From: Planctomycetota bacterium
Lineage (GTDB): Bacteria; Planctomycetota; B15-G4
Assembly (NCBI GenBank): GCA_965248575.1
Contig: CBDFJQ010000002.1
Span: forward strand, 3,929,375 to 3,993,374
Length of the DNA: 64,000 nt
Reading direction: 5' to 3'
Part shown: positions 16,808 to 32,095 of the stretch, piece by piece
Position numbering within the stretch: the first letter of the stretch is position 1
How the letters are laid out: each line of letters opens with the position of its first letter
Translations under genes and position numbers: made by a program
The notes under the pieces: model-generated
Told to the model about the DNA's origin: nothing
The model's input: the letters and a program-made list of their open reading frames with translations, nothing else
The model's database searches: none

Positions 16808-17404
16808 ATGGATGAGACGACTCGTGAGGATCTGGGGCGGGGCTTGCTGCCTGCTTTGGTGGGTGCGGATGAGGTGGTGCGGCGGGTTCGTGCGGTCGGG
16901 GCGGGGAGCGTGATTGATGTGCGCTCTCCTGTGGAAGTGCTTGGGGAGTCGGTCCCGGGGGCGGTGGCGGTGCCGCTGGATCAACTGGAGGCGCGTCTGG
17001 ACGAGGTGCGGGCGGTGCCGGCGCCGCGGCTGTTGTTGTGTCGCTCGGGTGCTCGGGCTGGCAAGGCGATGGAGACCTTGACCGCGCTGGGAGTGGACGG
17101 GTTGAGCGTCATGAGTGGTGGGCTGGAGGCCTACCGGGCCGCGGGAGGCAGCACCGTGTCCGCCGGCTCGCACATGTCGCTCGAACGACAGGTGCGGGTG
17201 GCGGCCGGTTCCCTGAGTTTGCTCGGGGTGATCCTGGGTTTCTTGCTGCACCCGGGATTCTTCGGCTTGTCGGGCTTCGTGGGAGCGGGTCTGGTGTTCG
17301 CCGGGGTCACGGACTGGTGCGGGATGGGATTGCTCCTGGCGCGTGCGCCTTGGAATCAGCGCCCTGGGACGCGCGCTCAGCCGTCGGACACGCTGTCCCA
17401 GTAG
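16808..17404 (+). CDS. rhodanese-like domain protein with C-terminal YgaP-like (DUF2892) membrane segment
   Basis: Rhodanese-like core with active-site-like LLLCRSGARAGKA; C-terminal hydrophobic GVILGFLLHPGFFGLSGFVGAGLVFAGVTDWCGMGLLLA; ATG 16808 preferred. Confidence 0.7.
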   Translation: MDETTREDLGRGLLPALVGADEVVRRVRAVGAGSVIDVRSPVEVLGESVPGAVAVPLDQLEARLDEVRAVPAPRLLLCRSGARAGKAMETLTALGVDGLSVMSGGLEAYRAAGGSTVSAGSHMSLERQVRVAAGSLSLLGVILGFLLHPGFFGLSGFVGAGLVFAGVTDWCGMGLLLARAPWNQRPGTRAQPSDTLSQ

Positions 17405-18432
17405 GGGGCGAGGGCCTGACGTGCCTTGCCGACGGTGACGGTTGCGTCGATGGAGGGCGCGGCGTCCAAGCCGAAGTCGCGGCCTGGGACACCGGGTTCG
17501 GCGCCGCTGCTGGCGTGCAGGGCGGCGCGCACACCCTGCACCACACCTTGCGGGTCGTAGCCCCCTTCGAGGGTGCACACGAGGCGACCGGGGCAGTGCT
17601 CGTCCGACCAGCTGCGGAACAGTTGGAACAGGGCGTCGAAGCCAGAGCGGCTGACGGCCAAACCCCCGAGGGGGTCGGCGTGCCAGGTGTCGAAACCGGC
17701 CGAAACGAGGATCAGGTCGGGGCGGTAGTCGGAGACCACGGGGCCCACCACCTCTTGATAGAGGTGCAGGAGGTCGGCGTCGCCCATGCCCGCGCCCAGC
17801 GGTAGGTTTACGGTGTGGCCGGCGCCCTCGCCCGTGCCCACCTCGGTCAGCGGGCCGGTGAAGGGATAGAAGGGGTAGCGATGGCTGGAGACGTAGAGCA
17901 CGTCGCTGCGGCTGTCGAAGGCGTGTTGGGTGCCGTTGCCGTGGTGCACGTCGGGGTCGAGGATCAGCACCCGTTCGCAGCCCAGCTCGGCTCGGGCGTG
18001 TTCGGCGGCTACGGCCACGTTGTTGAAGAGGCAGAAGCCCATGGCGTGGGAGGCTTCGGCGTGGTGGCCGGGGGGGCGCACCAAGGCGAAGGCGCCGGCG
18101 GCCTCGCCTGCGACCACGGCTTCGGTGGCGGCGAGGGTCGCCCCCGCACCCTTCAGGGCAGCCTCCCAGGAGCCGGCGCTGGTGATGGTATCGCCGTCGA
18201 GGGCGACAGGGGCCTGACCCGCCGTGGCCTCGACCACATCCACATGCTGGGCGGTGTGCACCCGTTGCAGCTCGGCGCGAGTGGCTCGGCGCGGGCTGTC
18301 CTGGCGGGTGCCGGGCACGGGGCGCGCGTCCAGGTCGTCCAGCACCGCGGCCAGTCGGGCAGCGTTTTCCGGATGGCCGGGACCCGGGTCGTGCTCCAGG
18401 CAGCTCGGGTCTCGTAGGATCAGAGTGTCCAT
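17377..18432 (-). CDS. histone deacetylase-family (acetoin utilization/HDAC-like) protein
   Basis: MDTLILRDPSCLEHDPGPGHPENAARL..., FALVRPPGHHAE, ILDPDVHHGNGTQ, VSAGFDTWHADPLGG: canonical HDAC/arginase-fold motifs; start trimmed from track ORF 17377..19248. Confidence 0.85.
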   Translation of the reverse strand: MDTLILRDPSCLEHDPGPGHPENAARLAAVLDDLDARPVPGTRQDSPRRATRAELQRVHTAQHVDVVEATAGQAPVALDGDTITSAGSWEAALKGAGATLAATEAVVAGEAAGAFALVRPPGHHAEASHAMGFCLFNNVAVAAEHARAELGCERVLILDPDVHHGNGTQHAFDSRSDVLYVSSHRYPFYPFTGPLTEVGTGEGAGHTVNLPLGAGMGDADLLHLYQEVVGPVVSDYRPDLILVSAGFDTWHADPLGGLAVSRSGFDALFQLFRSWSDEHCPGRLVCTLEGGYDPQGVVQGVRAALHASSGAEPGVPGRDFGLDAAPSIDATVTVGKARQALAPYWDSVSDG

Positions 18433-18504
18433 GCAGCGAACGGTAGCGCTCGCCAGGGGCGGGCTCCAGTGGCGAGGCGGCGGTGACCCAGCGGTGATCG
18501 ATCG

Positions 18505-19725
18505 ATGAGCAGGGGACAGCGAAACGCGCTCATGGCCTTCGGCCTCGTGCTGGTCGCCTATGTGCTGGCCCGCGCCCTGTCTGGCGACAACGACTTCGAC
18601 GGCTTCCATCGCGCGGCGCAACACGTGCTCGACACCGGGACGCTCAGCCGGGTGAAGGACGTGCAGCGCTACCCGCCCAGCTTCCAATTGCTGATGCTGC
18701 CCTTCGGTCTGCTGCCATTGAAGGTGGCCGCGGGACTGTGGTTGGTGTTGAGCGTCGTGGCTCTGTGGAAGTTGCCGCGCCTGCTCGAACGCCTGATGGG
18801 TGTCCCGGTCTCCGCGCAGTTGGTGGCGGGCTGCGTGATGCTGCCGCTGGTGGTGGACAACCTGAACCTCGGGCAGAGCGCGCCGGTGTTGGTGTGCCTG
18901 TGCGCGTTGGCGCTGGTCTGGGCGCGGGAGGGGCGTGGACTCGCCAGCGGCTTCTTGTTGGGTGTACTCGCCCTGTTCAAGGTGTTGCCCGTCGTGATGT
19001 TGGCGATCCCGATCCTGTTGTGCGTGCGTGGCGGCAGTGGCGAGGCCGGCGACGAAGCTGCTCGGGGAACACAGGCAGCCCTGCGGCTCGTGGCGGGTGC
19101 GCTGCTCGCCCTGCTCCTGGCAACGGCTGGGCTCGTGGCCGTGGTGGGCTGGGAGGACACGCGCGACACGACGCAGCAATGGGTCACGAAGACCCGCGCT
19201 GAGCAGACGCCCTGGGCGCTGGTGGCCAACAACCGCAGCCTGCGTCACAACAACGAAGGGCTGGGCGTTGTACTCGCCCGGACCTACTGCGACATCAGCC
19301 CGGCGCAGGCGAAGGGCTCCGTGTCTCTGGCCAAGTGGCCACTGTCGGTGGCGTGGGGGATGTACGGCGCCCTCTTGGCGGGGCTCGTGGTGGCGGTGTG
19401 GCGAGGGCTGTTCGCGGTGCGGCGGCTCATGGCTTCAAGCGAGGCCGCAGCCCGTCACAGTGCGTGGGGCGGGCTGTTCGCGCTGGCGTGCTTGGGCACC
19501 CTGCTCATCTCACCCATCGTGTGGACGCATTACTTTCTCTGGGTGTTGCCGGCCGCCGTCTTCCTGCATGAGCGGCAACGCCTGGTGTTGTGGGGCGGTG
19601 TCGCCTTCGCCGTGTGTTTCGCCGTGACGCCCCTGCGCGGGCTGGGCGTGCACATCTATGCGACCTATGCGCTGTTCTGGGTGTTGGCGTTGGAGATCGT
19701 GCGCCGGGCGCGCGCGTCAGGCTAA
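18505..19725 (+). CDS. polytopic membrane protein, GT87/DUF2029-like glycosyltransferase candidate
   Basis: About 10 predicted TM helices with conserved-looking loop motifs; family call is from overall architecture and tentative. Confidence 0.5.
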   Translation: MSRGQRNALMAFGLVLVAYVLARALSGDNDFDGFHRAAQHVLDTGTLSRVKDVQRYPPSFQLLMLPFGLLPLKVAAGLWLVLSVVALWKLPRLLERLMGVPVSAQLVAGCVMLPLVVDNLNLGQSAPVLVCLCALALVWAREGRGLASGFLLGVLALFKVLPVVMLAIPILLCVRGGSGEAGDEAARGTQAALRLVAGALLALLLATAGLVAVVGWEDTRDTTQQWVTKTRAEQTPWALVANNRSLRHNNEGLGVVLARTYCDISPAQAKGSVSLAKWPLSVAWGMYGALLAGLVVAVWRGLFAVRRLMASSEAAARHSAWGGLFALACLGTLLISPIVWTHYFLWVLPAAVFLHERQRLVLWGGVAFAVCFAVTPLRGLGVHIYATYALFWVLALEIVRRARASG

Positions 19726-19736
19726 GCCCGCGCCCT

Positions 19737-20222
19737 TCAGGCCTTGCCCTCGTTGATCCACTCCACCTCGCCGCCGGGCAGGAAGTAGACGATCAGCATG
19801 CGGCCGTCGGTGACGGTCGGCACGTGTGCCGAGTCGGGCGCGAAGGCCACCCAACCCTCCGGTTGGCCGTCGAACTTGGCGTCCCCTTCCACGGCGAAGC
19901 AGATGTTCACTTCGCCCTTGGGGTGGCGGTGGTTGATGCCGCCGCCCGTCATCCAGACGAAGTCCACGGACATGTCGTGGGGCGTGTCGCCGGGCTTGGC
20001 CAGGCGCGAGAAGCGCACCGGGTCCTTGCCTTTGTTGCAGATGACGCCATCCGCGAAGGCAGCCATGAGCGCCTTGCGCAAGTCGACGGCTTCGGGGCCG
20101 GCCATGGGATAGCGTCGCTCGAGTTCGGCGCGGGCGGCCGACGCGTCGCTCAGGTCGACAGCGGCGGCGTGGCCCATGGGGGCGTCGAGCAGGGTCAGCA
20201 GATCTTCAGCGGTGGCGGGCAT
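19737..20222 (-). CDS. hypothetical protein (cupin-like, possibly DUF4863), last gene of the HAD-Prx operon
   Basis: ATG at 20222, 21 nt after the peroxiredoxin stop on the same strand; no secure family assignment. Confidence 0.55.
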   Translation of the reverse strand: MPATAEDLLTLLDAPMGHAAAVDLSDASAARAELERRYPMAGPEAVDLRKALMAAFADGVICNKGKDPVRFSRLAKPGDTPHDMSVDFVWMTGGGINHRHPKGEVNICFAVEGDAKFDGQPEGWVAFAPDSAHVPTVTDGRMLIVYFLPGGEVEWINEGKA

Positions 20223-20243
20223 GGTGGCTCCTTAAACCGGCGA

Positions 20244-20717
20244 TCAACCGGCGCCGTTGAGGCGTGCCATGGCGGCGGGCACGTGTTCCTTGATGTCGGA
20301 CACCTTCTCGGCGTGTTCGATCTTGCCGTGGGCATCAATGATGTAGGTGATGCGGTCCGGGTACTTGGCGCCGTCGTCGGCGCAGGCGCCGTAGGCCACG
20401 CTCATGGCCTTGCTCGTGTCGCACAACAACGGGTAGTTGAAGTCGAACTTGTCGGCGAAGGCCTTGTTGTCGGCCACGCTGTCAAAAGAGACGCCGAAGA
20501 CGGCGGTCTTGTCGTTCAGTTCTGGGGTTCGATCACGGAACCCCTGGCCCTGGACGCGTCAGCCAGGGGTGTCGGCTTTGGGATAGAACCAGAGCAGCAC
20601 GCGCTGGCCGGAGAAGTCCTCCAGGTTGCGGGTGGCGCCGGTGTGGTCCTGGAGCTCGAAGGCGGGAGCGTCGTCGCCCACATTGAGCAGCTTGGGTTTC
20701 TTGCTGAAGAGGCCCAT
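20244..20717 (-). CDS. bcp: Bcp/PrxQ-type peroxiredoxin with in-frame TGA (candidate selenocysteine) at the peroxidatic-Cys position (codon at 20559..20561)
   Basis: Minus-strand ATG at 20717 preceded by GAGGAG RBS. Translation MGLFSKKPKLLNVGDDAPAFELQDHTGATRNLEDFSGQRVLLWFYPKADTPG-[TGA]-RVQGQGFRDRTPELNDKTAVFGVSFDSVADNKAFADKFDFNYPLLCD...DRITYIIDAHGKIEHAEKV aligns residue-for-residue with E. coli Bcp (FYPKAMTPGCTVQACGLRD ... GKIEHV), with TGA where the peroxidatic Cys codon sits. Frame continues through track ORF 20244..20477. Confidence 0.65.
20518..20558 (-). promoter_or_regulatory. candidate bacterial SECIS hairpin immediately 3' of the in-frame UGA
   Basis: mRNA reads UGA-CGCGUCCAGGGCCA-GGGGUUC-CGUGAUC-GAACCCC: 7-bp GC-rich stem, 7-nt loop containing GU, starting 14 nt after UGA. 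Seen by eye, not folded computationally. Confidence 0.4.
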
Positions 20718-20727
20718 GGGGCTCCTC

Positions 20728-21378
20728 TCACGAAGGGGACAGGTCGAGCTGTTGCGGGAGATCCGCGAAGCCGCCGGTCAGGATGCGGTCGGCGCCCGCC
20801 TCGCGCAACGCCTGCTCCTCGCCCACCCCACCCAGCACGACCCAGCAGGGGATGTGCGCGGCATGCGCCGCGAGCACGTCCGCATCGGAGTCGCCGATCA
20901 TGAGGGCGGCCGATGCCGGGGCGCCCAGGGCCTCGAGGGCGTGCAGCAGCACATCCGGGGCGGGCTTGCTGTGGGACACGAGGTCGCGGCCCGAGACGTG
21001 GGCGATGTGCGGCGCGAGGCCGGTGGCCTGCAGGCCGTCCTGGGCGCTCTGGGTCAGGCGCGTGGTGGCGACCGCCAGCCGGAAGCCGGCGGCCGTGAGC
21101 AGGGGCAGGGTCTCGGCCACCCCGGGCAGCACCCGGCTGCGGGCGGCGAGGCGCGGCAGGACCCGCTTGGCGAAAGCGCTGACCATGCCGTGGGGGTCGT
21201 CCGCCCCGAGCTGCTCCCAGACGGTGTGGGGCGGCTGGCCGATCTTGCTGCGGGCCCAGGCGGCCTCGGGGACGGGCAATCCAGCCTCCTCGGCCAGCTC
21301 CAAAACCCCTTCGACGATGGCGTCGGAGGCATCCAGCAGGGTGCCATCCAGGTCGAGCAGCAGGACGTCGGGGCGCAT
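20728..21378 (-). CDS. HAD-superfamily hydrolase (phosphoglycolate phosphatase-like)
   Basis: MRPDVLLLDLDGTLLD (HAD motif I DxDGT), SKPAPDV, MIGDSDADVLAAHAA (motif IV); stop 10 nt upstream of the peroxiredoxin start, RBS embedded. Confidence 0.75.
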   Translation of the reverse strand: MRPDVLLLDLDGTLLDASDAIVEGVLELAEEAGLPVPEAAWARSKIGQPPHTVWEQLGADDPHGMVSAFAKRVLPRLAARSRVLPGVAETLPLLTAAGFRLAVATTRLTQSAQDGLQATGLAPHIAHVSGRDLVSHSKPAPDVLLHALEALGAPASAALMIGDSDADVLAAHAAHIPCWVVLGGVGEEQALREAGADRILTGGFADLPQQLDLSPS

Positions 21379-21480
21379 GGCGGGGGATGTTAGCAGGCCG
21401 CGCCGGTTGCAGAGCGGGGCCGGGTTGCCCCTGGCGGCGGGCCCCAGCCCGGGGGCCTGTCGCGGGGTAGGATACCCCCC

Positions 21481-23331
21481 ATGGCTCGCATGCTCCCCAG
21501 GACCTCGCTCCGCTCCTTGCGCCGACTCCTGGTGGGTCCGGAGTGGCTGGTGGTGGCCACCTTCGTGCTGATGATCGAGCTCATGGCGCCCACGGTCGAA
21601 AGCGATGTGGACGACATCACATGGGTGATCGTGATGCCCATGCTGCTGAGCTTGGGTTGCATCATGGCGACGCACCAACACCTGCCCCTGATGAGCGGCC
21701 TGGTGACCTGGGCCTCCAAGCTCTTCAAGCGCATGCGGCGCAACCTGGTGGTGAGCCTGGGCCTCGACTTCCACCCGGAGCGGGCGCCGCGGCTCGCGCC
21801 CTTCGTCACCCTGCGCAAGGGCGTCTTCATCTTGTTCCTCGTAGCAGCCGTGCTGTTGGCGGGGCGTGGTCTAGGTCGCGACGTCCTGCAAGCCACGCGC
21901 GTGCAAGGGCTCTACACGCTGCACAACCTGATGATCGGGACGGCCTGGTTTGGTTTGATCCTGGGCACCGTGATCGCGGTGCCTGCCAGCTTGCTGGCCA
22001 TCCTCGAGGTGGTGCGCAGGCGGTTTGGGGTCGAGGGCTTCGGGCGCGTGATGTTGGTCTCGGGTGGCTCGGTGCTGGTGGCCATTTTCCTGGTCGTGCT
22101 CAACGCCAAGACGGGGCTGACGGGCTGCCTCGGTGTGCTGGCCTTTGCCACCTTGCTGCCGTCCGTGGTGCGGCCCATCGACCCGCCCCGGGGGCAATGG
22201 CTGAACATCGCCATGGGTCGCAACGGGCCCCCGCGTACGATCCGTCTCGGGCAGCTGCTGACCGACACCTACCGCGTGTTGTCATTGGTGGCCTTCTCCA
22301 TCGTGGCGTTGCTGATGCCGGGCGAGTCGGCCTTGTCCGCGACCACCTTCCCGGTGACGGACCTGCTGTTGTCCGTCTTCGGCTGGTCGGCGGCCTGGTT
22401 GCTCACGGGCGGTGCCTGCCTGGGCATCGGTGAGTTCAACCGTCGGCGACGTCTGTTCGACCCGGCCTTCCCCCGCAGCCGGGTGTTGTGGGCGGTGCCC
22501 GGCCCGGAGGCCCGTGCCTTGGAGCAGGAGCGGCACGCGGTCGAGGAGGCTGGCTGGCGGCTCGTGGTCTCGGACAGCCTGCCCGGCCCCGAAGACGCCG
22601 ACTTGCTGGTGGGTGTTCCCACGAGTCCTTTGCCTCCGCGCGGTGTGCCTCTGACCCAAGTGCCGCCCGCCATCTTCCTGGTGGACGAGGACCCTGCGGC
22701 CCTGCTGGCCGAAGCCGAGGAGCGGGACAAGGCCGAGCGCGCCAGCGAGGCCATCGAAGGCTTGCTCAACGCCACCCGACCGCGCATGGGCGACCACGGC
22801 GAGGGGACGTTCCTCGTGCCCCATTGTTGGTTGGTGGTGGGGCTCACCCGGGACGACGAGCGCGGGAGTCTCGAACGCAGCCCCGTGCTGACCTTCGGCC
22901 AGCCTTTCCGCATCGCCTTCGGCACCCGCCTGCGTCGCTTTCTCTACGACGTCATGGCCCGGGCCGACATCGACGTGCTCTACATCGAGGACTCCGTGAC
23001 ACCGGAGCAGGTGAGCGAGGTGCTGGAATTGCTCTTCGAACGTCACATCTCGCGCATGCAACCCGAGGCCGTGGCCGAGCACGACTTCGTGGGCGTGACC
23101 GGTGTGCGGGTGGTGCTGCACAACGTGGACCCGGAGGGCGAAGGCATCAAGGGTGTCGACGCCCACGTCTCCCGCAACGCCATCTCTCGCGCGCGGATCA
23201 TGATCATCGGCCACGACCGACGAGACGATGACGACGACGAGGGCCCGCCCGCCGATGGCGAGTCCAGTGATCTGTGGTTGGAGGAGAGCCTGAGCGGGCT
23301 CTTCCCCAAGACGCCTCTGCAGAACATCTGA
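21481..23331 (+). CDS. large hypothetical integral membrane protein with acidic C-terminal tail
   Basis: 616-aa ORF with multiple hydrophobic segments in the N-terminal 330 residues and a soluble C-terminal region ending in DRRDDDDDEGPPADGE; lies immediately upstream of intI. Confidence 0.5.
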   Translation: MARMLPRTSLRSLRRLLVGPEWLVVATFVLMIELMAPTVESDVDDITWVIVMPMLLSLGCIMATHQHLPLMSGLVTWASKLFKRMRRNLVVSLGLDFHPERAPRLAPFVTLRKGVFILFLVAAVLLAGRGLGRDVLQATRVQGLYTLHNLMIGTAWFGLILGTVIAVPASLLAILEVVRRRFGVEGFGRVMLVSGGSVLVAIFLVVLNAKTGLTGCLGVLAFATLLPSVVRPIDPPRGQWLNIAMGRNGPPRTIRLGQLLTDTYRVLSLVAFSIVALLMPGESALSATTFPVTDLLLSVFGWSAAWLLTGGACLGIGEFNRRRRLFDPAFPRSRVLWAVPGPEARALEQERHAVEEAGWRLVVSDSLPGPEDADLLVGVPTSPLPPRGVPLTQVPPAIFLVDEDPAALLAEAEERDKAERASEAIEGLLNATRPRMGDHGEGTFLVPHCWLVVGLTRDDERGSLERSPVLTFGQPFRIAFGTRLRRFLYDVMARADIDVLYIEDSVTPEQVSEVLELLFERHISRMQPEAVAEHDFVGVTGVRVVLHNVDPEGEGIKGVDAHVSRNAISRARIMIIGHDRRDDDDDEGPPADGESSDLWLEESLSGLFPKTPLQNI

Positions 23332-23636
23332 GCGGCGCCGGGCGAGAGGCCGGTCATTCGGGCCTGTGCACGCACGGGGGTCGCCAGCTCGGCGTTGGCT
23401 CGTCCTCGACGATGCTCTGCATCGCCTGCGGCTCGCCGCCTTGATCTGACGGCCCCAGCACGCACCCAGGGCCGAAGCACCGGCCTCTTACCCGGCTCGG
23501 GTTGGGGTGAAACAGATCGAGGCTTGGGCCGTCGGTGGGGTTGGTTATGCGGGTCTGTCTAATTCGTCGGGGGATTCGGTTCATGGCGCGGCGTCGGGCG
23601 GCGGGGCGGGGGCAGCGGGCTCGGTCCCCTTGGTTG

Positions 23637-24692
23637 ATGGTGCGTTTGCGGGAGGAGCTGCTTGTGCGGAGCTACAGTCCGCGGACGGCACAGACCTATG
23701 AGCACTGGGTGCGGCGCTTCCTGCGGTTTCATGGGATGCGGTCGCCGAGGGGGATGGGGGGTGAGGAGGTGACGGGCTTCCTCTCACACCTGGCGACCGA
23801 GATGAAGGTGAGCGCGTCGACCCAGAACCAGGCGCTGGCGGCGCTGCTGTTCCTTTACGGGAAGGTGTTGCAGGAGGACCTGCCGTGGATGGCGGACGTG
23901 GTGCGGGCGCGGCGGCCCCGCTACCTGCCGGTGGTCATGACTCAGGGGGAGGTACGCGAGGTGCTGGGTGCCTTGGAGGGGGTGCCTGCCACGGTGGGTG
24001 CCTTGCTCTATGGGTCAGGCCTGCGCTTGCTGGAGGCCCTCACCCTGCGGGTGAAGGATGTCGACTTCGGCGCGCGTCAGCTGTTGGTGCGGCAGGGGAA
24101 GGGCAAGAAGGACCGCCGGGCCCTGCTGCCCACCTCGGTGGAAGGGGCCCTGAGGCACCAGCTCCGCCAGGCGCGCTACCAACATGAGCAGGACCTGAAG
24201 AACGACGCAGGATGGGTCGAGCTCCCCGCCGCCTTCGGGCGCAAGTCAACCCACGCCGGCCAGGACTGGCCCTGGCAATGGGTCTTCCCCGCCACACGGA
24301 TCTACACCTGCCAGGAGACGGGAGAACGAAGGCGCCATCACCTGCACGAGACAGTGGTGCAGAAGGCGGTGCGCGCTGCCGCGCGACGAGCGGGACTCTC
24401 GAAACGCATCACAAGCCACGCCTTCCGTCATTCCTTTGCAACCCACTTGCTGCAATCCGGAACCGACATCAGGACCATCCAGAAGCTGCTGGGCCACAAG
24501 AGCGTGCAGACCACGATGATCTACACCCACGTCCTGAACCGCGGACCCATGGGAGTGGTGAGCCCACTGGATCAGCTGGGCGAGGAGGTGCAGCTGGAGG
24601 GGGAGGGACGGAAGGGCGGTGCCGCCGATCCAACGGGTCCACGGGATCCACCAGCCGATGAGGCCGAGGAAGGACCTCCCGGTGCTGGATAA
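23637..24692 (+). CDS. intI: integron integrase IntI (tyrosine recombinase), co-directional with the cassette array
   Basis: N-terminal [30 protein letters not shown]...[21 protein letters not shown]; IntI-specific insertion region ...[29 protein letters not shown]...; catalytic box [39 protein letters not shown] and ...GVVSPLD tail. Start ATG 23637 chosen inside track ORF 23535..24692. Confidence 0.9.
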
Positions 24693-24897
24693 TGCTGAAC
24701 ACCGTCGCGTGATAGACGGACCTGCCTATCGGGGTTAGGGTCGATTCTCGATCTGGCGCCTCAGGCCAGAAAACCGGAACGGAAGAGGAGGAAGTCGCCA
24801 TTGACGGGGAGAGAGAACACGGGCTGTGGGTCGATGGCCGCGTGGGGGCTTCGTTCCGTCTTTGCGTGACAGCCACGCTGTCCAATTGGAGTTAGGC
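24693..24897 (+). other. attI-like region between intI stop and first cassette; crossover core GTTAGGC at 24891-24897, GTTAGGG repeat at 24734-24740
   Basis: Position between intI and first cassette; terminal GTTAGGC identical to the attC R' cores; upstream GTTAGGG may be an integrase-binding direct repeat (inference). Confidence 0.5.
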
Positions 24898-24903
24898 AGC
24901 CGA

Positions 24904-25230
24904 ATGGCGAAGAAGATCAGTCGACTATGGGCTGCGGTGGCCGTCACACTCGCAACTGCCTTGCTGTGCTGGTACGTGGTCATTCCAGCCATCTACGATC
25001 ATTACTTCGAATACGAGACGGCTCTGCATAGAGTTGATCACTTGGTAGGTTCAGGGCGTCAGTTCGCGGAGAACTCCGACTTGGTCAACTACCTGTGGCG
25101 CGAGATTCGCGACGACACCAAGAATGTACCCAACATGGGGTTCTTAACGCCCGAGACGCTCTTCGCACGCGGGCGTCACTACACTCTCATCATGCTTGAG
25201 GAAGCACTGGAGCGCCTCGGTGAGCCCTGA
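24904..25230 (+). CDS. integron cassette ORF 1: small membrane-anchored hypothetical protein
   Basis: ATG 6 nt after attI core; MAKKISRLWAAVAVTLATALLCWYVVIPAI hydrophobic N-terminus; followed by attC. Confidence 0.55.
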   Translation: MAKKISRLWAAVAVTLATALLCWYVVIPAIYDHYFEYETALHRVDHLVGSGRQFAENSDLVNYLWREIRDDTKNVPNMGFLTPETLFARGRHYTLIMLEEALERLGEP

Positions 25231-25235
25231 CGCTT

Positions 25236-25302
25236 GCCTAACTGGCGCTAGCAACGGACGGGGCGCTTCGCGCCCCGCCGCTGAACCGCAGGTACGTTAG
25301 CC
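25236..25302 (+). repeat. attC site 1 (GCCTAAC ... GTTAGCC)
   Basis: Imperfect palindrome bounded by inverse core and core. Confidence 0.7.
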
Positions 25303-25319
25303 AGATGGAGCGTTGAGTG

Positions 25320-25712
25320 ATGCGAACGGTCTTTGCTGTTCTGGCAGGTGTGCTGGTGCATTTTCTGGTGCTGTCTGTCGTCGTTTCGCAGACGGTGACA
25401 CTTCAAGTCGTCCAAGAAGGAGCTGCGCCACTACCCGACGAGAATCCTCTGGTGTCGTGGGTGATCCTTGCGTGCATGTTCGTCGTAGCGGCGCTAGTCG
25501 GCGGAACGGCCGCCGGAGCCGTTTCAAAAGGGCGTTTCGCTCTGGCCTCGTGCCTCGTCGGGGCATGGGGTGCCATGCTGCTGTTCGCCAACGGTCAGAG
25601 TGCTGCAGACCTAGCATTCACCGTAGTCCTTGCCGGTGCAGTACTCTGTGTTCCCGCCGCACTCCTTGGGGGCTACACGTGGAAGAGGTTCTGTGCCAAG
25701 CCAACTGGCTAA
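25320..25712 (+). CDS. integron cassette ORF 2: hypothetical membrane protein
   Basis: Hydrophobic 130-aa ORF; stop TAA lies inside attC inverse core. Confidence 0.55.
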   Translation: MRTVFAVLAGVLVHFLVLSVVVSQTVTLQVVQEGAAPLPDENPLVSWVILACMFVVAALVGGTAAGAVSKGRFALASCLVGAWGAMLLFANGQSAADLAFTVVLAGAVLCVPAALLGGYTWKRFCAKPTG

Positions 25713-25773
25713 CAAGCGCTTGCAGCGGACGGTCCGCTGCGCGGCCCGCCGCTGAACCGCCAGTCCGTTAGGC
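25707..25773 (+). repeat. attC site 2 (GGCTAAC ... GTTAGGC), type A with internal palindrome GCAGCGGAC-G-GTCCGCTGC
   Basis: ctaacaagcgcttgcagcggacggtccgctgcgcggcccgccgctgaaccgccagtccgttaggc. Confidence 0.8.
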
Positions 25774-25799
25774 AGCACCACACTCTTGGAGTTGGGCCG

Positions 25800-26129
25800 A
25801 TGGTCGAATTGCGCCGAATAGAGCCCCTACCTCTCGGGAAGCTGCAGGCCTTTATTTGGGCAGCTCTTGCGCTAGTGCGCGCCGTGCCGATGCTTTTCGC
25901 TACCGTGTTCGAGGGGCCAGGTTCCGAGTTGTGGGGCGAGTTCAGCATCACCTCCATTGTGGACATGACGGGATTCTATGGGCTATTGCTCAGTCCCGTG
26001 GTTGCAGGGTTCTGGGGGCTCATTAATGGCTGCATTATTGCGTTAGCATACAACTGGGCTGCTGGGCAGCTCGGTGGCGTTAAGATCACGATAGTGACGG
26101 CAAGCGAACGTGATGGGGCCAGCGCATGA
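25800..26129 (+). CDS. integron cassette ORF 3: hypothetical membrane protein
   Basis: 109-aa hydrophobic ORF between attC 2 and attC 3. Confidence 0.55.
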   Translation: MVELRRIEPLPLGKLQAFIWAALALVRAVPMLFATVFEGPGSELWGEFSITSIVDMTGFYGLLLSPVVAGFWGLINGCIIALAYNWAAGQLGGVKITIVTASERDGASA

Positions 26130-26135
26130 CGGTCT

Positions 26136-26202
26136 GCCTAACAAGCGCTTGCAGCGGACGGTCCGCTGCGCGGCCCGCCGCTGAACCGCCAGTCCGTTAG
26201 GT
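26136..26202 (+). repeat. attC site 3 (GCCTAAC ... GTTAGGT), type A
   Basis: Near-identical to attC 2. Confidence 0.8.
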
Positions 26203-26209
26203 GGACGTA

Positions 26210-26572
26210 ATGCCGGATGTGAGTGCTCAACCATCGATGATCGAGAAAGTGCGATGCGAAGTCGTGACCTACGATCTGACGTATGCGGAGAAACAGCTGA
26301 TTGCCAAGGGAGCACTCGCGCCAGTTCTGGAGCGTTTGCACAGTACTGCGAGTGACAGCGTAGGCGACTGCGCAAGGTGGAGTGGTATTGCGGCAGTCAT
26401 CGGTTTCGTGGTGCTCCTCGTTGGGCCAAGGAGCAACTCTGTGTGGATTTGGGCGGTTAGCAGTTTTGGGCATCTAGCCTTAGCCGTAGTTCTTGGCTAC
26501 ATGAGCACCCGCCAGCGTAGGGAGGAAAGGCACCTTGCGAATCTCCTCGATACATTGAGGGAGGCAGAGTGA
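26210..26572 (+). CDS. integron cassette ORF 4: hypothetical protein with C-terminal TM segment
   Basis: ATG 26210 (MPDVSAQPSMIEK...); cassette position. Confidence 0.5.
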   Translation: MPDVSAQPSMIEKVRCEVVTYDLTYAEKQLIAKGALAPVLERLHSTASDSVGDCARWSGIAAVIGFVVLLVGPRSNSVWIWAVSSFGHLALAVVLGYMSTRQRREERHLANLLDTLREAE

Positions 26573-26590
26573 AGGCGTCTCTGAGACACC

Positions 26591-26657
26591 ACCTAACAAG
26601 CGCTTGCAGCGGACGTTCCGCTGCGCGGACCGCCGCTGAACCACAGGTCCGTTAGAT
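26591..26657 (+). repeat. attC site 4 (ACCTAAC ... GTTAGAT), type A
   Basis: Same repeat family with point differences. Confidence 0.75.
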
Positions 26658-26747
26658 GGGCGGATCTACGCAGGAAGGTGCAACACACAGGGTCTCCAAG
26701 TGTTAGATGAACCAAACGGAGAGCAACCGAAGAAGCGGCGCACCGCA

Positions 26748-26885
26748 ATGGCTACGAGTGTTTCGATTGGGGCAGCTGTTGGGGCCGTGTTCGGCGTGGC
26801 GGTGAGCAACATTGGCCTCGGCATTGCTATTGGCGTTGCGGTGGGCGTGGCCATCGGCGCAAGTCGAGAGGCAGGTAGGAAGTGA
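26748..26885 (+). CDS. integron cassette ORF 5: small glycine-zipper membrane peptide
   Basis: MATSVSIGAAVGAVFGVAVSNIGLGIAIGVAVGVAIGASREAGRK; alternative GTG start at 26700. Confidence 0.45.
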   Translation: MATSVSIGAAVGAVFGVAVSNIGLGIAIGVAVGVAIGASREAGRK

Positions 26886-26890
26886 ATGCC

Positions 26891-26952
26891 ATCTAACAAG
26901 CCGCACCAGACGGACCGGGCTCCGCCCGGCTGCTGAACGCCAGTCGGCAAGG
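26891..26952 (+). repeat. attC site 5, type B with degenerate R' core (GGCAAGG in place of GTTAGGC)
   Basis: atctaacaagccgcaccagacggaccgggctccgcccggctgctgaacgccagtcggcaagg; R' core altered. Confidence 0.5.
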
Positions 26953-27003
26953 CGGCAACATTGGACCGACGCACCACACAGGAGAGAACTATTGGCCGAC
27001 AAT

Positions 27004-27423
27004 GTGAAGACCACAGCGGCGACGGTGATTCCGACCATGCGATACAACGATGCAGCGGCAGCCATCGCGTGGCTCTGCGAAGCGTTCGGATTCGAGAAAC
27101 ACCTGGTCGTTCCCGGTGAAGACGGCACAATCGCCCACGCACAGCTCGTCTTCGGGAATGGAATGGTAATGCTCGCCTCAGCGCGCGCGAGCGAGTTCGA
27201 CAACCTTCACAAGCTGCCGAGCGCCCTGGGCGACGCCGTATCTCAGAGCCCGTACATCATCGTCGACGACGCCGACAAACACTACGCACGAGCTGTTGCG
27301 GCGGGCGCAGAGATCGTGATTGAAATTAGGGACGAGGATTACGGGGGCCGAGGCTACTCTTGTCGCGATCCCGAAGGGCACGTTTGGAACTTCGGCTCCT
27401 ACGATCCCTGGGCCTCCGCCTAA
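27004..27423 (+). CDS. integron cassette ORF 6: VOC-family (glyoxalase/bleomycin-resistance fold) protein
   Basis: GTG start; (M)KTTAATVIPTMRYNDAAAAIAWLCEAFGFEKHLVVPGEDGTIAHAQLVFGNGMVM...DEDYGGRGYSCRDPEGHVWNFGSYDPW resembles PhnB/VOC proteins. Confidence 0.7.
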   Translation: MKTTAATVIPTMRYNDAAAAIAWLCEAFGFEKHLVVPGEDGTIAHAQLVFGNGMVMLASARASEFDNLHKLPSALGDAVSQSPYIIVDDADKHYARAVAAGAEIVIEIRDEDYGGRGYSCRDPEGHVWNFGSYDPWASA

Positions 27424-27484
27424 CAAGCGCTTGCAGCGGACGGTCCGCTGCGCGGCCCGTCGCTGAACCGCCAGTCCGTTGGGC
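27418..27484 (+). repeat. attC site 6 (GCCTAAC ... GTTGGGC), type A
   Basis: Stop TAA inside inverse core. Confidence 0.8.
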
Positions 27485-27514
27485 GGACGGAGTCACTGAC
27501 CGCGGGAGAGTGGA

Positions 27515-27757
27515 ATGGCCATGACCTGGACGATAGTGCTAGTTGTAGTGCATGTGGTTCTTGCTCTCGCGGCTATTCGCTACGCACGAAAGAAGTCTAC
27601 CTGGACGCGTGGCCCACAGTTCGCAGTCGTCTGTGCATTGGCAATTCCGATAGTTGGACCAATAATGACCCTTCTTTCAGCAGCCGCTTCGGGAAGCGGT
27701 GAATACGTAGACGAGAGTGTGCAATACGGCGTCGATCCACCGGACCTAGGTAGCTAG
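27515..27757 (+). CDS. integron cassette ORF 7: small membrane protein
   Basis: 80-aa ORF, two hydrophobic helices. Confidence 0.5.
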   Translation: MAMTWTIVLVVVHVVLALAAIRYARKKSTWTRGPQFAVVCALAIPIVGPIMTLLSAAASGSGEYVDESVQYGVDPPDLGS

Positions 27758-27798
27758 AATGGCGACTAGTTCAAGAGAGCCAAGGCGTTACGCCGCAC

Positions 27799-27862
27799 GC
27801 CCAACAAGCCTTTTCAGACGGACCGGGCTTCGCCCGGCCGCCGAACCGCAGGTCCGCTAGCT
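27799..27862 (+). repeat. attC site 7, type B (GCCCAAC ... GCTAGCT)
   Basis: cccaacaagccttttcagacggaccgggcttcgcccggccgccgaaccgcaggtccgctagct. Confidence 0.6.
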
Positions 27863-27875
27863 AGACGGAACAGTC

Positions 27876-28097
27876 ATGAGGGAGCAGGGCAAAGGACGAC
27901 GGATCAGGCATGTCCAGAACTGGGATCTCCATGTCTTCATGCTGCTCTTTGTCGTACCAGCTTTTGCTGGAGGCCTTTGGCTGGTCCATCCTCTTCTGGG
28001 CTTGGTTGTGGTCGCCATCTTCGTAGTCTGGGTTGTAGACAACGTGCACGAGTCCAATCGTCTCCAGGAGCGCGGCCGCCGTGAGCGCACTAGCTAA
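27876..28097 (+). CDS. integron cassette ORF 8: small membrane protein
   Basis: 73-aa ORF with hydrophobic helices; stop inside attC inverse core. Confidence 0.5.
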   Translation: MREQGKGRRIRHVQNWDLHVFMLLFVVPAFAGGLWLVHPLLGLVVVAIFVVWVVDNVHESNRLQERGRRERTS

Positions 28098-28158
28098 CAA
28101 GCGCTTGCAGCGGACGGTCCGCTGCGCGTCCCGCCGCTGACCCGCAGATACGTTAGCC
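28092..28158 (+). repeat. attC site 8 (AGCTAAC ... GTTAGCC), type A
   Basis: Same repeat family. Confidence 0.8.
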
Positions 28159-28160
28159 GG

Positions 28161-28514
28161 ATGGAGGCGATGCCGGTCACCAAGTTCCAAGAGGAATGGA
28201 ATGAGATCGCAGTGCGGTGGGGCCTCTACGTGAAGGCGCCGTTCGTGGTCAAACTCATTCACGGAGAAGTCACCGTCCCTGTGCTTCTTCGAGACTTCGG
28301 CGCCTCTCACGGGATGCTACTTGTTACGGACTATGGCCTGATCTCTCCCCACTGGGAGGAACTCGTGAGCCTTGGTTTTGGGTTCTCGTGCCTCAGTGAG
28401 CCTGACGGAGTGAGCCACCCCGACGACGACGAAGCCCTCATGGAGATGCTCTCAGACTGGGGATGGTCGGGAAGCGAGAACCCTCCCGAGTGGTATCGTG
28501 AACCCAGTAGCTAA
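28161..28514 (+). CDS. integron cassette ORF 9: hypothetical soluble protein
   Basis: 117-aa ORF starting 3 nt after attC 8; no recognised motif. Confidence 0.5.
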   Translation: MEAMPVTKFQEEWNEIAVRWGLYVKAPFVVKLIHGEVTVPVLLRDFGASHGMLLVTDYGLISPHWEELVSLGFGFSCLSEPDGVSHPDDDEALMEMLSDWGWSGSENPPEWYREPSS

Positions 28515-28572
28515 CCAGCCGTAGCAGACGGGCCGGGCTGGGCCCGGCCGCTGAACGGCAGGTCCGTTAGGC
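28509..28572 (+). repeat. attC site 9, type B (AGCTAAC ... GTTAGGC)
   Basis: agctaaccagccgtagcagacgggccgggctgggcccggccgctgaacggcaggtccgttaggc. Confidence 0.75.
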
Positions 28573-28591
28573 GCACGAAGGGGGAGTACTG

Positions 28592-29107
28592 ATGCCCGTT
28601 CGATTCGAATGCTCGAAATGCGGACAGGACATCTCGTCGTTCATGCGCGTTGGAGAGACTGCGGAATGTCCATCATGCGGCGCGCGAGTGCAGGTACCTG
28701 CTTCGGCGGAGCGCAGAGGACTTACCTATGAGCCGTCGCAAAGAGGGGGCTACCCAGCGCCGACGATCGCTGACGGGCCCCCGGCGGAGTCGATACCACA
28801 TGCTGAGGCTTTCACCGTGAGGCGGATCCAGGCACGGACGATTCTCCAACTATCTCTGATCGGCCACCTCTGCTTCTGCATTCCGGCTTTTCTGCTCGTG
28901 GGGCTTGGGGCAGCCCTCGGATTCGAGGGCTGGTCGGTAACGTGGAATGACGAACCCGTGACTGGAGTCATGGCCGTGCTTGTAGCTCTGCCTCTTGGCG
29001 TAGGCGCAGGGCTCGGATCCGGCCTCGCCAATGGAACCGTCGCCTGCATTGGCCTCTGGATCTACTCCAGGTTTCGGTGGGTGACGGTCCACTATGCGCG
29101 AGCGTAG
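28592..29107 (+). CDS. integron cassette ORF 10: zinc-ribbon plus transmembrane protein
   Basis: N-terminal CSKCGQ...CPSCGARV (Cx2C...Cx2C) followed by hydrophobic helices. Confidence 0.55.
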   Translation: MPVRFECSKCGQDISSFMRVGETAECPSCGARVQVPASAERRGLTYEPSQRGGYPAPTIADGPPAESIPHAEAFTVRRIQARTILQLSLIGHLCFCIPAFLLVGLGAALGFEGWSVTWNDEPVTGVMAVLVALPLGVGAGLGSGLANGTVACIGLWIYSRFRWVTVHYARA

Positions 29108-29113
29108 CATTGC

Positions 29114-29180
29114 GTCTAGCAAGCGCTTGCGGCGGACTGTCCGCTGCGCGTCCCGCCGCTGAATCGCAACGACGTTAGGC
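29114..29180 (+). repeat. attC site 10 (GTCTAGC ... GTTAGGC), type A variant
   Basis: Same repeat family. Confidence 0.7.
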
Positions 29181-29193
29181 AGAGCAACTGACG

Positions 29194-29613
29194 ATGATCG
29201 AATTCCAGCTGTTGCCCAGAACCTCGGACGGGACAGAAGAGCCACAGCTCTGGTTTCGGGTGCGGCTACGCGGTGAGTTCACAGGAGAGCTCGACCTGCA
29301 ATTGGAGACAGCTGAAGTTCTCTCGTTTGTTGAGCAGCTCGCAGGCTTTCCGAGGTCAACAGAGCAGGTTGAATCGGCAAGGCTCGTCGACCGGCACGCA
29401 GCCAGGTTTGCCGATTTCGAAGTTTCCTGCATCGATCGATCGGGGCATGTCCGCGTTGCAGCCAGCCTTGGGTCGGGTTCAGGGCAGTTTGGCGCTCCTG
29501 TCTGGGACACGGTCACAGCCAACGTCGCAGCCGTTGCGGCTGAGATCGACGTGTTTCAGAAGCAGCTTGTAGCGATCATCAAAGGGATTGAGTCCCATGC
29601 GCGCCTTGCCTAA
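29194..29613 (+). CDS. integron cassette ORF 11: hypothetical protein
   Basis: 139-aa ORF; no recognised motif. Confidence 0.5.
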   Translation: MIEFQLLPRTSDGTEEPQLWFRVRLRGEFTGELDLQLETAEVLSFVEQLAGFPRSTEQVESARLVDRHAARFADFEVSCIDRSGHVRVAASLGSGSGQFGAPVWDTVTANVAAVAAEIDVFQKQLVAIIKGIESHARLA

Positions 29614-29670
29614 CAAGTGCGTGCAGCGGACACCGCTCTGCGGCGCAGCTGACCCACTGAGTCGGTAGAT
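29608..29670 (+). repeat. attC site 11 (GCCTAAC ... GGTAGAT), divergent 3' half
   Basis: 5' half matches type A; 3' half diverged, adjoining a lower-GC cassette. Confidence 0.5.
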
Positions 29671-29686
29671 ATATGAACGGTGTTTA

Positions 29687-30199
29687 ATGAACGAAAAGCA
29701 ACCACGAATAATGCCATCCACTGAGTCCCAATCTCTACCAGGTAAGGGCAAGTCAGGCCGGTTCTGGCAAGGGTTCTGGCTTATATTCCTAGTGGTTTCA
29801 CTTGCCTACGCTTGGTACTCCTTCTATGCGCCTTCCAACCGCATCGCCTGGGCCGATAACTTCACGGCTGCGCAACAACAGGCAGTCAAGTCTGACAAAC
29901 CGATGATTCTCTTTTTCACTGGCAAGTGGTGTTCACCCTGCCAGATCATGAAACGTCAAGTCTGGGCGGATGAACAGGTGATGGCTGCGGTCAATGAGGC
30001 GTTCATCCCTGTGACGATTGACGTGGATGACCCTAATGCGGCCTCGGCATTGAGTCGGTACGGTGTTGGCCTAACGCCAACCACTATCATCACGGATTCA
30101 AAAGGGAATGTCTTGCAACGGAACCACGGGAGGATGAGCAAAACCGAATTCCTCGAATTGTTAGGTGAGATTGATCCATCGACCGTCGAAGATCTGTAA
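29687..30199 (+). CDS. integron cassette ORF 12: thioredoxin-fold protein (WCSPC active site), lower-GC cassette
   Basis: MILFFTGKWCSPCQIMKRQVWADEQV...: CxxC thioredoxin-like motif; N-terminal TM anchor; composition visibly AT-richer than flanks. Confidence 0.65.
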   Translation: MNEKQPRIMPSTESQSLPGKGKSGRFWQGFWLIFLVVSLAYAWYSFYAPSNRIAWADNFTAAQQQAVKSDKPMILFFTGKWCSPCQIMKRQVWADEQVMAAVNEAFIPVTIDVDDPNAASALSRYGVGLTPTTIITDSKGNVLQRNHGRMSKTEFLELLGEIDPSTVEDL

Positions 30200-30251
30200 T
30201 GCTAAGCGACTGCACCGTCTCTCTTCGGGCAATCATTGGTTTCGTTGGACT

Positions 30252-30312
30252 ATCTAACCATTCGTTGCACCAGACCGGCTTCGCCGACAGGTGAACGGCA
30301 AACCCGTTAGCC
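30252..30312 (+). repeat. attC site 12 (ATCTAAC ... GTTAGCC), distinct sequence type
   Basis: Bounded by canonical cores; internal sequence unlike types A/B. Confidence 0.6.
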
Positions 30313-30330
30313 AGATCAACTGAGGTTATC

Positions 30331-31116
30331 GTGGGCACTGCTCCCAGCAATCTCCGATGTCGAATAACGGATGCCGTGTGCAAAGCGTTACGGCCGTTGC
30401 CCCATGTGTTCGCCGGATGGGAGGGCGGGAGCGCTGCCTTCGATCTCGTGGATGAGTACTCCGACATAGACTTGAACTTCTTGTTGGATGACGCGGCCCT
30501 GGTCGATTCCCTTTATGCCGTTGTCGAGTCTGCACTCGAGACTGTGTCGCCGATTTCTACCACCCACTTTGAGCCCCCCGGCCGCTACTACAAATTGAGG
30601 GATGGTGGAGATTTCCTCCTGGTCGATGTGTGCATCTACCAGCCTGGGTCGCTCAGCGAGTGCCTCGACGTTGATCGTCACGGGAAAATTCGGCAGCTCT
30701 TCGACAAGGGGCAGTGGCTACGCAGCGAGACCTCAAGCGTGGTGTCCCAGCGAGCTACCCGAGCCAAGCGTCGGGACGATCTCGAAGAGTGGTTTTCCGT
30801 GAGTCAGAGTTTTGTCCGCAAGGCAATCATGCGCGGCCACGAGGTGGAGGCCTTGGCGGCGTTCTGGGGTTACACGCTCAAGCCACTCGTGGAAATTCTT
30901 CGCATGCGGTATTGCCCCGCACGATGGGACTTCGGCATGCGCTATCTGCAGAGAGATCTTCCAGGTCCTGTGTACGATGAGCTGCGGGGCATCATGTTTG
31001 TCGGAGAGTCTGTCGACCTAGCGGAAAAACTAGCGAAGGCGGTCGCATGGGGAGAGAGGCTACTGAGAGAATCTAAGCCGGGCAGTGAGATTGGACCTTC
31101 GCCAAGGGCTGGCTAA
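30331..31116 (+). CDS. integron cassette ORF 13: nucleotidyltransferase-fold protein
   Basis: GWEGGSAAFDLVDEYSDIDLNF fits the GS-x(n)-D-x-D minimal nucleotidyltransferase motif; substrate unknown. GTG start. Confidence 0.55.
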   Translation: MGTAPSNLRCRITDAVCKALRPLPHVFAGWEGGSAAFDLVDEYSDIDLNFLLDDAALVDSLYAVVESALETVSPISTTHFEPPGRYYKLRDGGDFLLVDVCIYQPGSLSECLDVDRHGKIRQLFDKGQWLRSETSSVVSQRATRAKRRDDLEEWFSVSQSFVRKAIMRGHEVEALAAFWGYTLKPLVEILRMRYCPARWDFGMRYLQRDLPGPVYDELRGIMFVGESVDLAEKLAKAVAWGERLLRESKPGSEIGPSPRAG

Positions 31117-31239
31117 CAAGGCGCTGCAGCTGACCGGCTCATGCGTCGGCGTTCCCAGGTTCTGGTAGTCTCTCGAACACGAAGGCGTTTCGAGGCCGGG
31201 GGCAAATCCCGCTGGCATCTGAGCGCCGGTCCGTTAGCT
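31111..31239 (+). repeat. attC site 13, long form (GGCTAAC ... GTTAGCT)
   Basis: About 129 bp between inverse core and core. Confidence 0.55.
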
Positions 31240-31255
31240 GGGCCAAGGAGCGACC

Positions 31256-31540
31256 GTGTCCAAACCAGCCAAGCTGTCGCTCGTGATGGCGGTGATCGCG
31301 ATGCTCCTGGCAGCTCCATTGTTGGGGGGGCACCAGTTGAGCGTGCATGGTGATCCATACACGTACATCTTCTTCCTCCCGAACATCGTTCCGCTGTTGG
31401 TACTTGAGTCGGCAGGCTATTTGCCAACAGATCACGAGTTGCTTGCGGCTGCCTCCAGTGTCGGGTTCTGGGTCATCACTGGAGCTGCGATTGGGTGGGT
31501 TTCAGTCTGGCGAACCCGAGGAGATCAAGATGCCACATAG
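31256..31540 (+). CDS. integron cassette ORF 14: small membrane protein
   Basis: GTG start; 94-aa hydrophobic ORF. Confidence 0.5.
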   Translation: MSKPAKLSLVMAVIAMLLAAPLLGGHQLSVHGDPYTYIFFLPNIVPLLVLESAGYLPTDHELLAAASSVGFWVITGAAIGWVSVWRTRGDQDAT

Positions 31541-31543
31541 CCA

Positions 31544-31605
31544 GCTACCAGCCGTAGCGGACGGACCGGGCTACGCCCGTCCGCTGAACGGCAGATACGT
31601 TAGCC
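31544..31605 (+). repeat. attC site 14, type B (AGCTACC ... GTTAGCC)
   Basis: agctaccagccgtagcggacggaccgggctacgcccgtccgctgaacggcagatacgttagcc. Confidence 0.7.
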
Positions 31606-31618
31606 GGATCAGGGAGGG

Positions 31619-32095
31619 GTGTTCGATATGTCTAGCCAAGATGTTGCCTCGTTCGTACTGAGGCTCTTGGGCGTCTTATTGCTCGTGACCTCGATTCCGA
31701 TTGCGATGGCCGTCATTGCTGACCAAGGGGGCCCCGGCTTGGGACCACTGACGGCGTCTGTCCTTGTTGGAGTGGCCCTCATTGTTTGGAGTCGGCCGCT
31801 CGGCAGTCGAATCGCTCCGAGCCCTGGCAAGCCCTCCGATGCGAAAGCATTGTCTGTCACGGACTGGCAGGCCATCGCCTTCTCGGCAATCGGCATCATG
31901 GTCATCGTGCGCAGCCTTGAGGCCTTCGCCGACAGTTACTTTCGATCCGAGGCGTTCGGAGCAGAGTTGTGGCCATGGCCCTTCACGGCGGTCCCCCTCT
32001 TGCAGTTGGTGGTTGGAGTCCTCCTGTTCTTCCAAGGGAGGGGTTTGGCCGCCTTCTGGCGCCGTTCGCAAGGAGACGGCGGTTCCAGCGGCTGA
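31619..32095 (+). CDS. integron cassette ORF 15: hypothetical membrane protein
   Basis: 158-aa ORF with 4 hydrophobic segments. Confidence 0.5.
   Translation: MFDMSSQDVASFVLRLLGVLLLVTSIPIAMAVIADQGGPGLGPLTASVLVGVALIVWSRPLGSRIAPSPGKPSDAKALSVTDWQAIAFSAIGIMVIVRSLEAFADSYFRSEAFGAELWPWPFTAVPLLQLVVGVLLFFQGRGLAAFWRRSQGDGGSSG

Follow-up and report, generated by a model that had tools for sequence, protein, structure and literature searches.

An in-frame TGA at the peroxidatic codon of a Bcp/PrxQ-type peroxiredoxin gene is very probably read as selenocysteine

Peroxiredoxins (Prx) of the COG1225 (Bcp)/PF00578 group that carry the motif TxxU are an established selenoprotein family, and the sections of PMC9312934 and PMC13188914 that deal with them give PxxxTxxU as the conserved form of this motif. 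The family has been known for about twenty years. Where PMC1088965, PMC9312934 and PMC13188914 treat it, it is catalogued with 43 genes in Sargasso Sea data, and WP_011365628.1 serves as an example. Experimental precedent for selenocysteine (Sec) in a peroxiredoxin is provided by PrxU of Eubacterium acidaminophilum (NF040737), which PMC9312934 presents, through its reference 58, as biochemically characterised. Here we analysed a peroxiredoxin gene interrupted by a TGA codon within a 64-kb stretch of DNA, which we call the window. The gene lies on the minus strand, and the features on which the analysis is based are the following.

20244..20717, minus strand: predicted Sec-peroxiredoxin gene (Bcp/PrxQ-type) of 157 codons plus a TGA terminator, delimited by translation, a PF00578 match, alignment and full-length homology to TGA-bearing orthologues
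20559..20561, minus strand: in-frame UGA at codon 53, predicted to specify selenocysteine as the peroxidatic residue of P46-x3-T50-x2-U53
20244..20246, minus strand: true terminator of the Prx gene, likewise TGA, from sequence and translation
20722..20726, minus strand: Shine-Dalgarno-like AGGAG, 4 nt before the ATG at 20717 and at the 3' end of the upstream HAD gene (stop TGA 20730-20728), a putative ribosome-binding site
20524..20544, minus strand: SECIS-like hairpin, with 5' arm GGGGUUC (20544-20538), loop CGUGAUC (20537-20531) and 3' arm GAACCCC (20530-20524)
20728..21393, minus strand: HAD-family phosphatase (PF13419, E=7e-31), the upstream neighbour, next to Prx in orthologous loci
19737..20222, minus strand: PnbB-family protein (PF16155, E=7e-29), the downstream neighbour, starting 21 nt past the prx stop and kept beside Prx in orthologous loci

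The gene at 20717..20244 very probably encodes a Bcp/PrxQ-type peroxiredoxin whose peroxidatic residue is a selenocysteine specified by the in-frame TGA. Its translation reads MGLFSKKPKLL...FYPKADTPG, then the TGA, then RVQGQGFRDR...ARLNGAG up to the terminator, with 104 intact codons between the two TGAs. The preliminary description of this locus had given a minus-strand Bcp homologue running from 20717 to 20244, with a TGA at 20559-20561 and the frame continuing as RVQGQGFRD..., and translation bears out all of these coordinates and details. It had also anticipated that gene callers would split the gene; the mechanical ORF list indeed divides it in two, with ORFs of 52 aa (20559..20717) and 77 aa (20244..20477). 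When Cys was substituted at codon 53, the protein matched the Pfam AhpC-TSA domain PF00578 with E=8.7e-31 (106.9 bits against a cutoff of 26), and it also matched the Redoxin domain PF08534. We aligned the protein with 14 full-length Cys-type homologues: the TGA column corresponds to the Cys of an invariant DTPGC in all 14, and P46, T50 and R122 are conserved. Solved Bcp structures (5enu, and 3drn, which is a Cys-to-Ser mutant) likewise align with their TPGC at the TGA position. The earlier statement that the TGA falls exactly on the peroxidatic Cys codon was thus correct, as was its description of selenocysteine peroxiredoxins as an established family, given the catalogues PMC1088965, PMC9312934 and PMC13188914.

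Compared with the catalogued Sec-Prx family, nothing essential differs in this gene. Both have the PF00578 domain, the PxxxTxxU motif (here P46, T50 and U53) with TxxU arising from an in-frame UGA at the peroxidatic position, widespread Cys homologues, and a stem-loop directly 3' of the UGA that is a candidate SECIS element. The pairing of Cys and Sec forms is accompanied by purifying selection. Traits of its own are a Planctomycetota-like genome of 65% GC and a conserved HAD–Prx–PnbB cluster. Close to U53, two residues differ from the family consensus (T54R and E56Q): the positions +1 and +3 after Sec are R and Q, whereas most Sec-Prx members have T and E/Q. R54 is shared with L064 and L025, both of them TGA-forms, and Q56 is frequent in TGA-forms.

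With the Cys-type Bcp/PrxQ thioredoxin-dependent thiol peroxidases (NF006960; structures 3drn, 5enu, 3gkk and 5iph), the protein shares the fold family, the active-site motif with its Arg, and a length of about 155 aa. In contrast to them, it would have Sec in place of the peroxidatic Cys, and it lacks the resolving Cys at +5 (the CxxxxC arrangement of atypical 2-Cys enzymes), the sequence being U53-RVQG-Q58. Some TGA-form relatives do have UxxxxC, and many others contain no further Cys at all, for instance the alphaproteobacterial forms. The Bcp equivalog NF006960 was the best NCBIfam match, at 104.9 bits with Cys for Sec and thus below the cutoff of 140; the protein is therefore Bcp-like but outside the E. 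coli-type Bcp equivalog. PrxU, also a peroxiredoxin, likewise has Sec as its peroxidatic residue, as predicted here, but represents another Prx subfamily: its profile, NF040737, has 233 positions against 157 residues in the window protein, whose 27.2 bits fall below the cutoff of 270, so that it is not a member. We also scanned the window crudely, over its full length, for in-frame TGAs with coding-like sequence on either side, which gave three sites. Only the TGA-53 site reads, by eye on the printed peptides, as recognisable protein on both sides, so that this 64-kb scan yielded no other convincing candidate for a gene with an in-frame TGA.

In order to find relatives with the same codon, we searched DNA directly, since gene callers would truncate TGA-forms. 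The protein database search returned only Cys-type full-length relatives, mostly from Planctomycetota MAGs, the best at about 60% identity. We then ran the TGA-specific pattern TAYCCNNNNGCNGAYACNCCNGGNTGA, which corresponds to Y-P-x-A-D-T-P-G followed by TGA, against 100,044 reference genomes, one per species. It gave at least 120 matches, while a rough hand estimate puts the matches expected by chance at about 9. Among the 120 matches listed, 117 lie in Bcp homologues that are intact, the N-terminal half being normal and 90-114 codons following the TGA, and the remaining three are short unrelated ORFs, which fits chance. The hosts among the matches listed are taxonomically diverse: Alphaproteobacteria, Gammaproteobacteria, SAR324, Planctomycetota, Acidobacteriota and Actinomycetota, and further Verrucomicrobiota, Gemmatimonadota, Binatota, Chloroflexota and Myxococcota; cultured organisms are among them, such as Anaeromyxobacter soli, A. 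terrae, Pyxidicoccus fallax and Archangium lansinium. BLASTP identified the TGA-form L100, from a Planctomycetota MAG, as the closest relative among the matches listed (70.8% identity). It outranks all Cys-forms, the best of which reach about 60-61%. A scan of viral contigs for Cys-form controls returned only two loci, which were left out of the analysis.

A perfect 7-bp hairpin begins 14 nt past UGA-53 and contains GU in its loop; a possible lower stem pairs CAG (20552-20550) with CUG (20519-20517). The preliminary description had recommended SECIS prediction on 20515-20561, and a covarying hairpin is present there. Its arrangement resembles the SECIS/SelB recoding of the E. coli fdhF type, in which a hairpin also lies directly 3' of the UGA within the coding sequence and exposes GU in the apical loop. 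The published model of bacterial SECIS elements places the loop 16-37 nt from the UGA, and the 21 nt found here fall within this range. However, the primary sequence of the hairpin is unrelated to that of the fdhF type, the hairpins of the Bcp family occur in three registers, and binding by SelB is putative. A scan of the whole 64-kb window at Rfam gathering thresholds gave 0 matches, which weighs little on the assignment of a SECIS element.

Folding energies were of little help. The hairpin has an MFE of -12 kcal/mol (z=-2.66), and stretches of 76 nt and 45 nt in this GC-rich sequence fold no better than shuffled ones (z=-0.22 and -0.78, respectively). The mean regional MFE did not differ between Sec and Cys forms. 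Since neither the folding energy of the whole region nor its z-score discriminates, both were rejected as evidence. What supports a SECIS element is therefore its position, its loop motif, the codon bias and the covariation, and not thermodynamics.

RNAalifold applied to all 122 TGA-forms together found no consensus structure. This is explained by the occurrence of the hairpin in three mutually exclusive registers; of the 116 TGA-forms from the matches listed, 88 fit one or another of the three at the site following the UGA. In register S1, the type found in the window (53 sequences), the stem is formed by nt 18-24/32-38 and the loop is CGUGAUC or CGUGAUA. Register S2 (17 sequences) has a stem shifted by one nt, such as GGCCUG/CAGGCC, GACUUC/GAAGUC or GAAAUC/GAUUUC, and a CGUGAY loop. 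Register S3 (18 sequences), found in UxxxxC forms, has an earlier 9-bp stem, in which GGUUGCGG/CCGCGACC alternate with GGUUCCGG/CCGGGACC, closed by a GUU triloop. The other 28 TGA-forms fit none of the registers at >=85%; they include several from Verrucomicrobiales, as well as forms from Acidobacteriota in which the stem is GCGUGCGG...CCGCGACGC. The presence of three registers in one protein family may reflect repeated re-invention, or sliding, of the SECIS element.

Because of these registers, S1 was analysed separately. Across 59 distinct sequences, both sides changed in five of the seven pairs. In the alignment, 91.5% of cells pair, a percentage inflated by the pre-selection of the sequences for at least 6/7 pairs, against 9-58% when the partner strand is slid, and none of 500 shuffles reached any of the observed measures. 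Codon usage provides a further indication. The seven codons of the window hairpin (GGG TTC CGT GAT CGA ACC CCA) have a GC3 of 0.43, compared with 0.90 in the other 144 codons (P ~0.003), and the only CGT and CGA Arg codons of the gene lie within them. The same choices recur throughout S1, with CGT in 58/59 sequences, GAT in 53/59, and CGA or AGA in 57/59. In contrast, Cys-forms with the GFRDR peptide use CGC-GAC-CGC, and in the six Cys-type homologues that encode G[FL]RDR the first Arg is CGC in every case. This codon use supports the view that the hairpin is maintained by a constraint at the RNA level. The hairpin is absent from five of these six Cys-type homologues. The exception is L124 (120-590), where the syntenic Cys-type homologue P0003 has an S2-type 6-bp stem, GGCCUG/CGGGCC, with a CGCGAC loop devoid of GU. 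This stem may have been left over from a recent change of Sec to Cys.

We then considered how UGA-53 could be decoded. It might be recoded to something other than Sec, through a tRNA-Sec-like tRNA charged with Cys, near-cognate read-through by Trp or Cys, or a reassigned code. Some bacteria have been described as having tRNA-Sec-like tRNAs for which insertion of Cys at UGA is proposed, which lends this explanation some substance, and the evidence for Sec in the present protein is drawn from sequence comparison. The window moreover revealed no gene for Sec synthesis: ARAGORN found no tRNA of any kind in its 64 kb, and hence no tRNA-Sec, and tblastn of the E. coli SelA, SelB and SelD proteins (approximate queries) against it gave nothing below E=0.25. 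Reassignment of the code as a whole is nevertheless ruled out by stop-codon usage. TGA terminates 16 of the 28 coding-like ORFs of the window, where it is the commonest stop, and ends the Prx gene and both its neighbours; it is thus an ordinary terminator here. The position of the hairpin and its GU loop suit recoding of the SelB type, and some members of the family adjoin bona fide components of the Sec machinery. In L074, a Terriglobia MAG, the Sec-Bcp gene is followed after about 0.8 kb by a selB gene (1661-3601, plus strand), which scores 383 bits on TIGR00475 (cutoff 242). In L072, a proteobacterial MAG, a tRNA-Sec with a UCA anticodon (6106-6200, minus strand) lies about 3 kb from the Sec-Bcp gene. 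The family is, in addition, catalogued as a selenoprotein family in the part of PMC9312934 that covers it. We therefore regard recoding to another amino acid as improbable. The same low likelihood applies to its specific version, in which the source genome would be devoid of Sec synthesis genes and UGA and hairpin would be decoded otherwise, for example as Cys by a tRNA-Sec-like tRNA together with a SelB-like factor; if this were true, the widespread 'Sec-Bcp' genes would in part represent a cysteine-recoding system.

The genomic context of the gene is conserved. The shared neighbourhood spans 17377-23331 of the window and is found in L133, L131, L088, L125 and L124; synteny of the HAD gene was observed with L133, L131 and L088 and with the Cys-type L125. 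L133, whose Prx protein is identical to that of L100, has the same order as the window, namely a 616-aa protein on the opposite strand, HAD, Prx(U), PnbB and a histone-deacetylase family protein, with 70-78% identity for each. L131 retains HAD, PnbB and the deacetylase and shows no match to the 616-aa protein, and L088 retains the 616-aa protein, HAD and PnbB. The TGA is also present in L131 (67.6% Prx identity, 73% GC) and in L088 (60%). Two Cys-type homologues share the HAD/Bcp/PnbB arrangement, which indicates that Sec and Cys interchange within a single orthologous group, as is typical of selenoproteins. The proposed comparison of Sec- and Cys-containing Bcp homologues thus revealed Cys/Sec pairing, with Cys forms at about 60% identity and some of them syntenic. 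The 616-aa protein of this neighbourhood has no Pfam match, and the PnbB family is a family of 4-hydroxylaminobenzoate lyases.

These comparisons bear on a second explanation, that a TGC or TGT codon was mutated to TGA in a dead gene or was misread in sequencing. A single base change is sufficient to turn TGY into TGA, there are Cys-type homologues that share about 60% identity, some of them in the same synteny, and no Sec machinery was seen in the 64-kb window. The preliminary description had named TGC or TGT in close relatives as the finding that would speak for such a pseudogene or error. We searched for it on metagenome contigs with a codon-neutral pattern specific to the clade, DTPG-[TGA/TGC/TGT]-xxQGxGFRDR[T/I]P[E/Q], and found TGA in nine of nine matches; across the family, the TGA-form occurs in at least 117 species. 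The codon is thus the same in 117 independent genomes among the matches listed and in all nine clade members, and syntenic orthologues have kept it at 60-71% identity, which supports the selenocysteine Bcp/PrxQ reading put forward earlier: L100/L133 (71%), L131 (68%) and L088 (60%) retain TGA in the same neighbourhood. The frame past the TGA is intact over its 104 codons and is under purifying selection. Estimated from pN/pS, dN/dS past the TGA is 0.19/1.19, or about 0.16, against L133, and 0.26/0.71, or about 0.36, against L131. These values are similar to those of the upstream part, showing that the 3' two-thirds of the gene are translated. The ungapped comparison with L088 is unreliable, with 101 versus 104 codons past the TGA, and a one-codon offset is likely because the protein lengths differ. 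Rare codons, finally, maintain the hairpin. A random nonsense mutation had been judged unlikely beforehand, and the TGA of 117 of the 120 matches listed, together with a dN/dS of 0.16-0.36 past it, sustains this judgement. By these comparative data TGA-53 is no strain-specific nonsense mutation, and we hold a pseudogene or a sequencing error to be very improbable.

The idea that translation stops at UGA-53, leaving the downstream part untranslated or made separately, can draw on the 52-aa and 77-aa ORFs of mechanical calling and on a terminator-like hairpin 55 nt downstream, but its likelihood is negligible. The 52-aa fragment would have neither the catalytic residue nor R122. Conservation at the protein level extends over the 25 codons that separate the TGA from the earliest potential restart (GTG 20477), the sequence past the TGA offers neither a start codon nor a ribosome-binding site, and the number of terminator-like sites agrees with shuffle expectation. 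The terminator-like element just mentioned lies within the prx coding sequence (20492-20505, minus strand, about 55 nt past the UGA) and consists of a GC hairpin with a T-rich run after it. The region contains two such sites, against 1.2 ± 1.3 in shuffles, and the hairpin is therefore probably due to chance.

On the favoured reading, that UGA-53 specifies selenocysteine, the expression and activity of the protein can be outlined as follows. The hairpin located 14-37 nt downstream of UGA-53 is predicted to act as a bacterial SECIS element. By binding SelB, it would bring the SelB·GTP·Sec-tRNA(Sec) complex to the ribosome, so that selenium would be inserted through decoding of UGA-53 as Sec and translation would run on for 104 codons to the real TGA terminator. 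The predicted product is a thioredoxin-fold peroxiredoxin with the selenolate of U53 as its nucleophile. Positioned by P46, T50 and R122, this selenolate would confer peroxidase activity by reducing H2O2 or organic hydroperoxides, being itself converted to a selenenic acid. The latter would probably be reduced directly by thioredoxin, glutaredoxin or another thiol, as in enzymes of the 1-Cys type. This recycling route is the most likely one because there is no resolving Cys at +5 and many family members have no other Cys. Recycling through Cys99 or Cys112 of the window protein would be a speculative alternative.

The gene adds a member to an already catalogued selenoprotein family. Its value is one of annotation, a correction and not a discovery, and the understanding of selenoproteins is unchanged by it. 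Standard gene callers split or truncate the gene, and consequently a functional antioxidant enzyme, as we infer it to be, is missed or labelled a pseudogene. Its presence predicts that the source organism uses selenium and possesses a complete Sec machinery. The sequences collected for this comparison, with more than 120 TGA-forms, three registers and the CGUGAU loop of S1/S2, could seed a covariance model for annotation of the family.

A probable integron was also observed in the window. An integron integrase, with a score of 416 bits on TIGR02249 (cutoff 265), is encoded at 23535-24692 on the plus strand. At least 14 copies of an attC-like repeat of about 75 nt, with GCCTAAC...GTTAGGC core sites, are distributed over 25200-34900 at intervals of 0.4-3 kb, in a region whose GC content is 58-62% compared with 66-69% in its flanks. 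The region 23535-34900 looks like a sedentary chromosomal integron, with its cassette array on the side towards which the integrase is transcribed.
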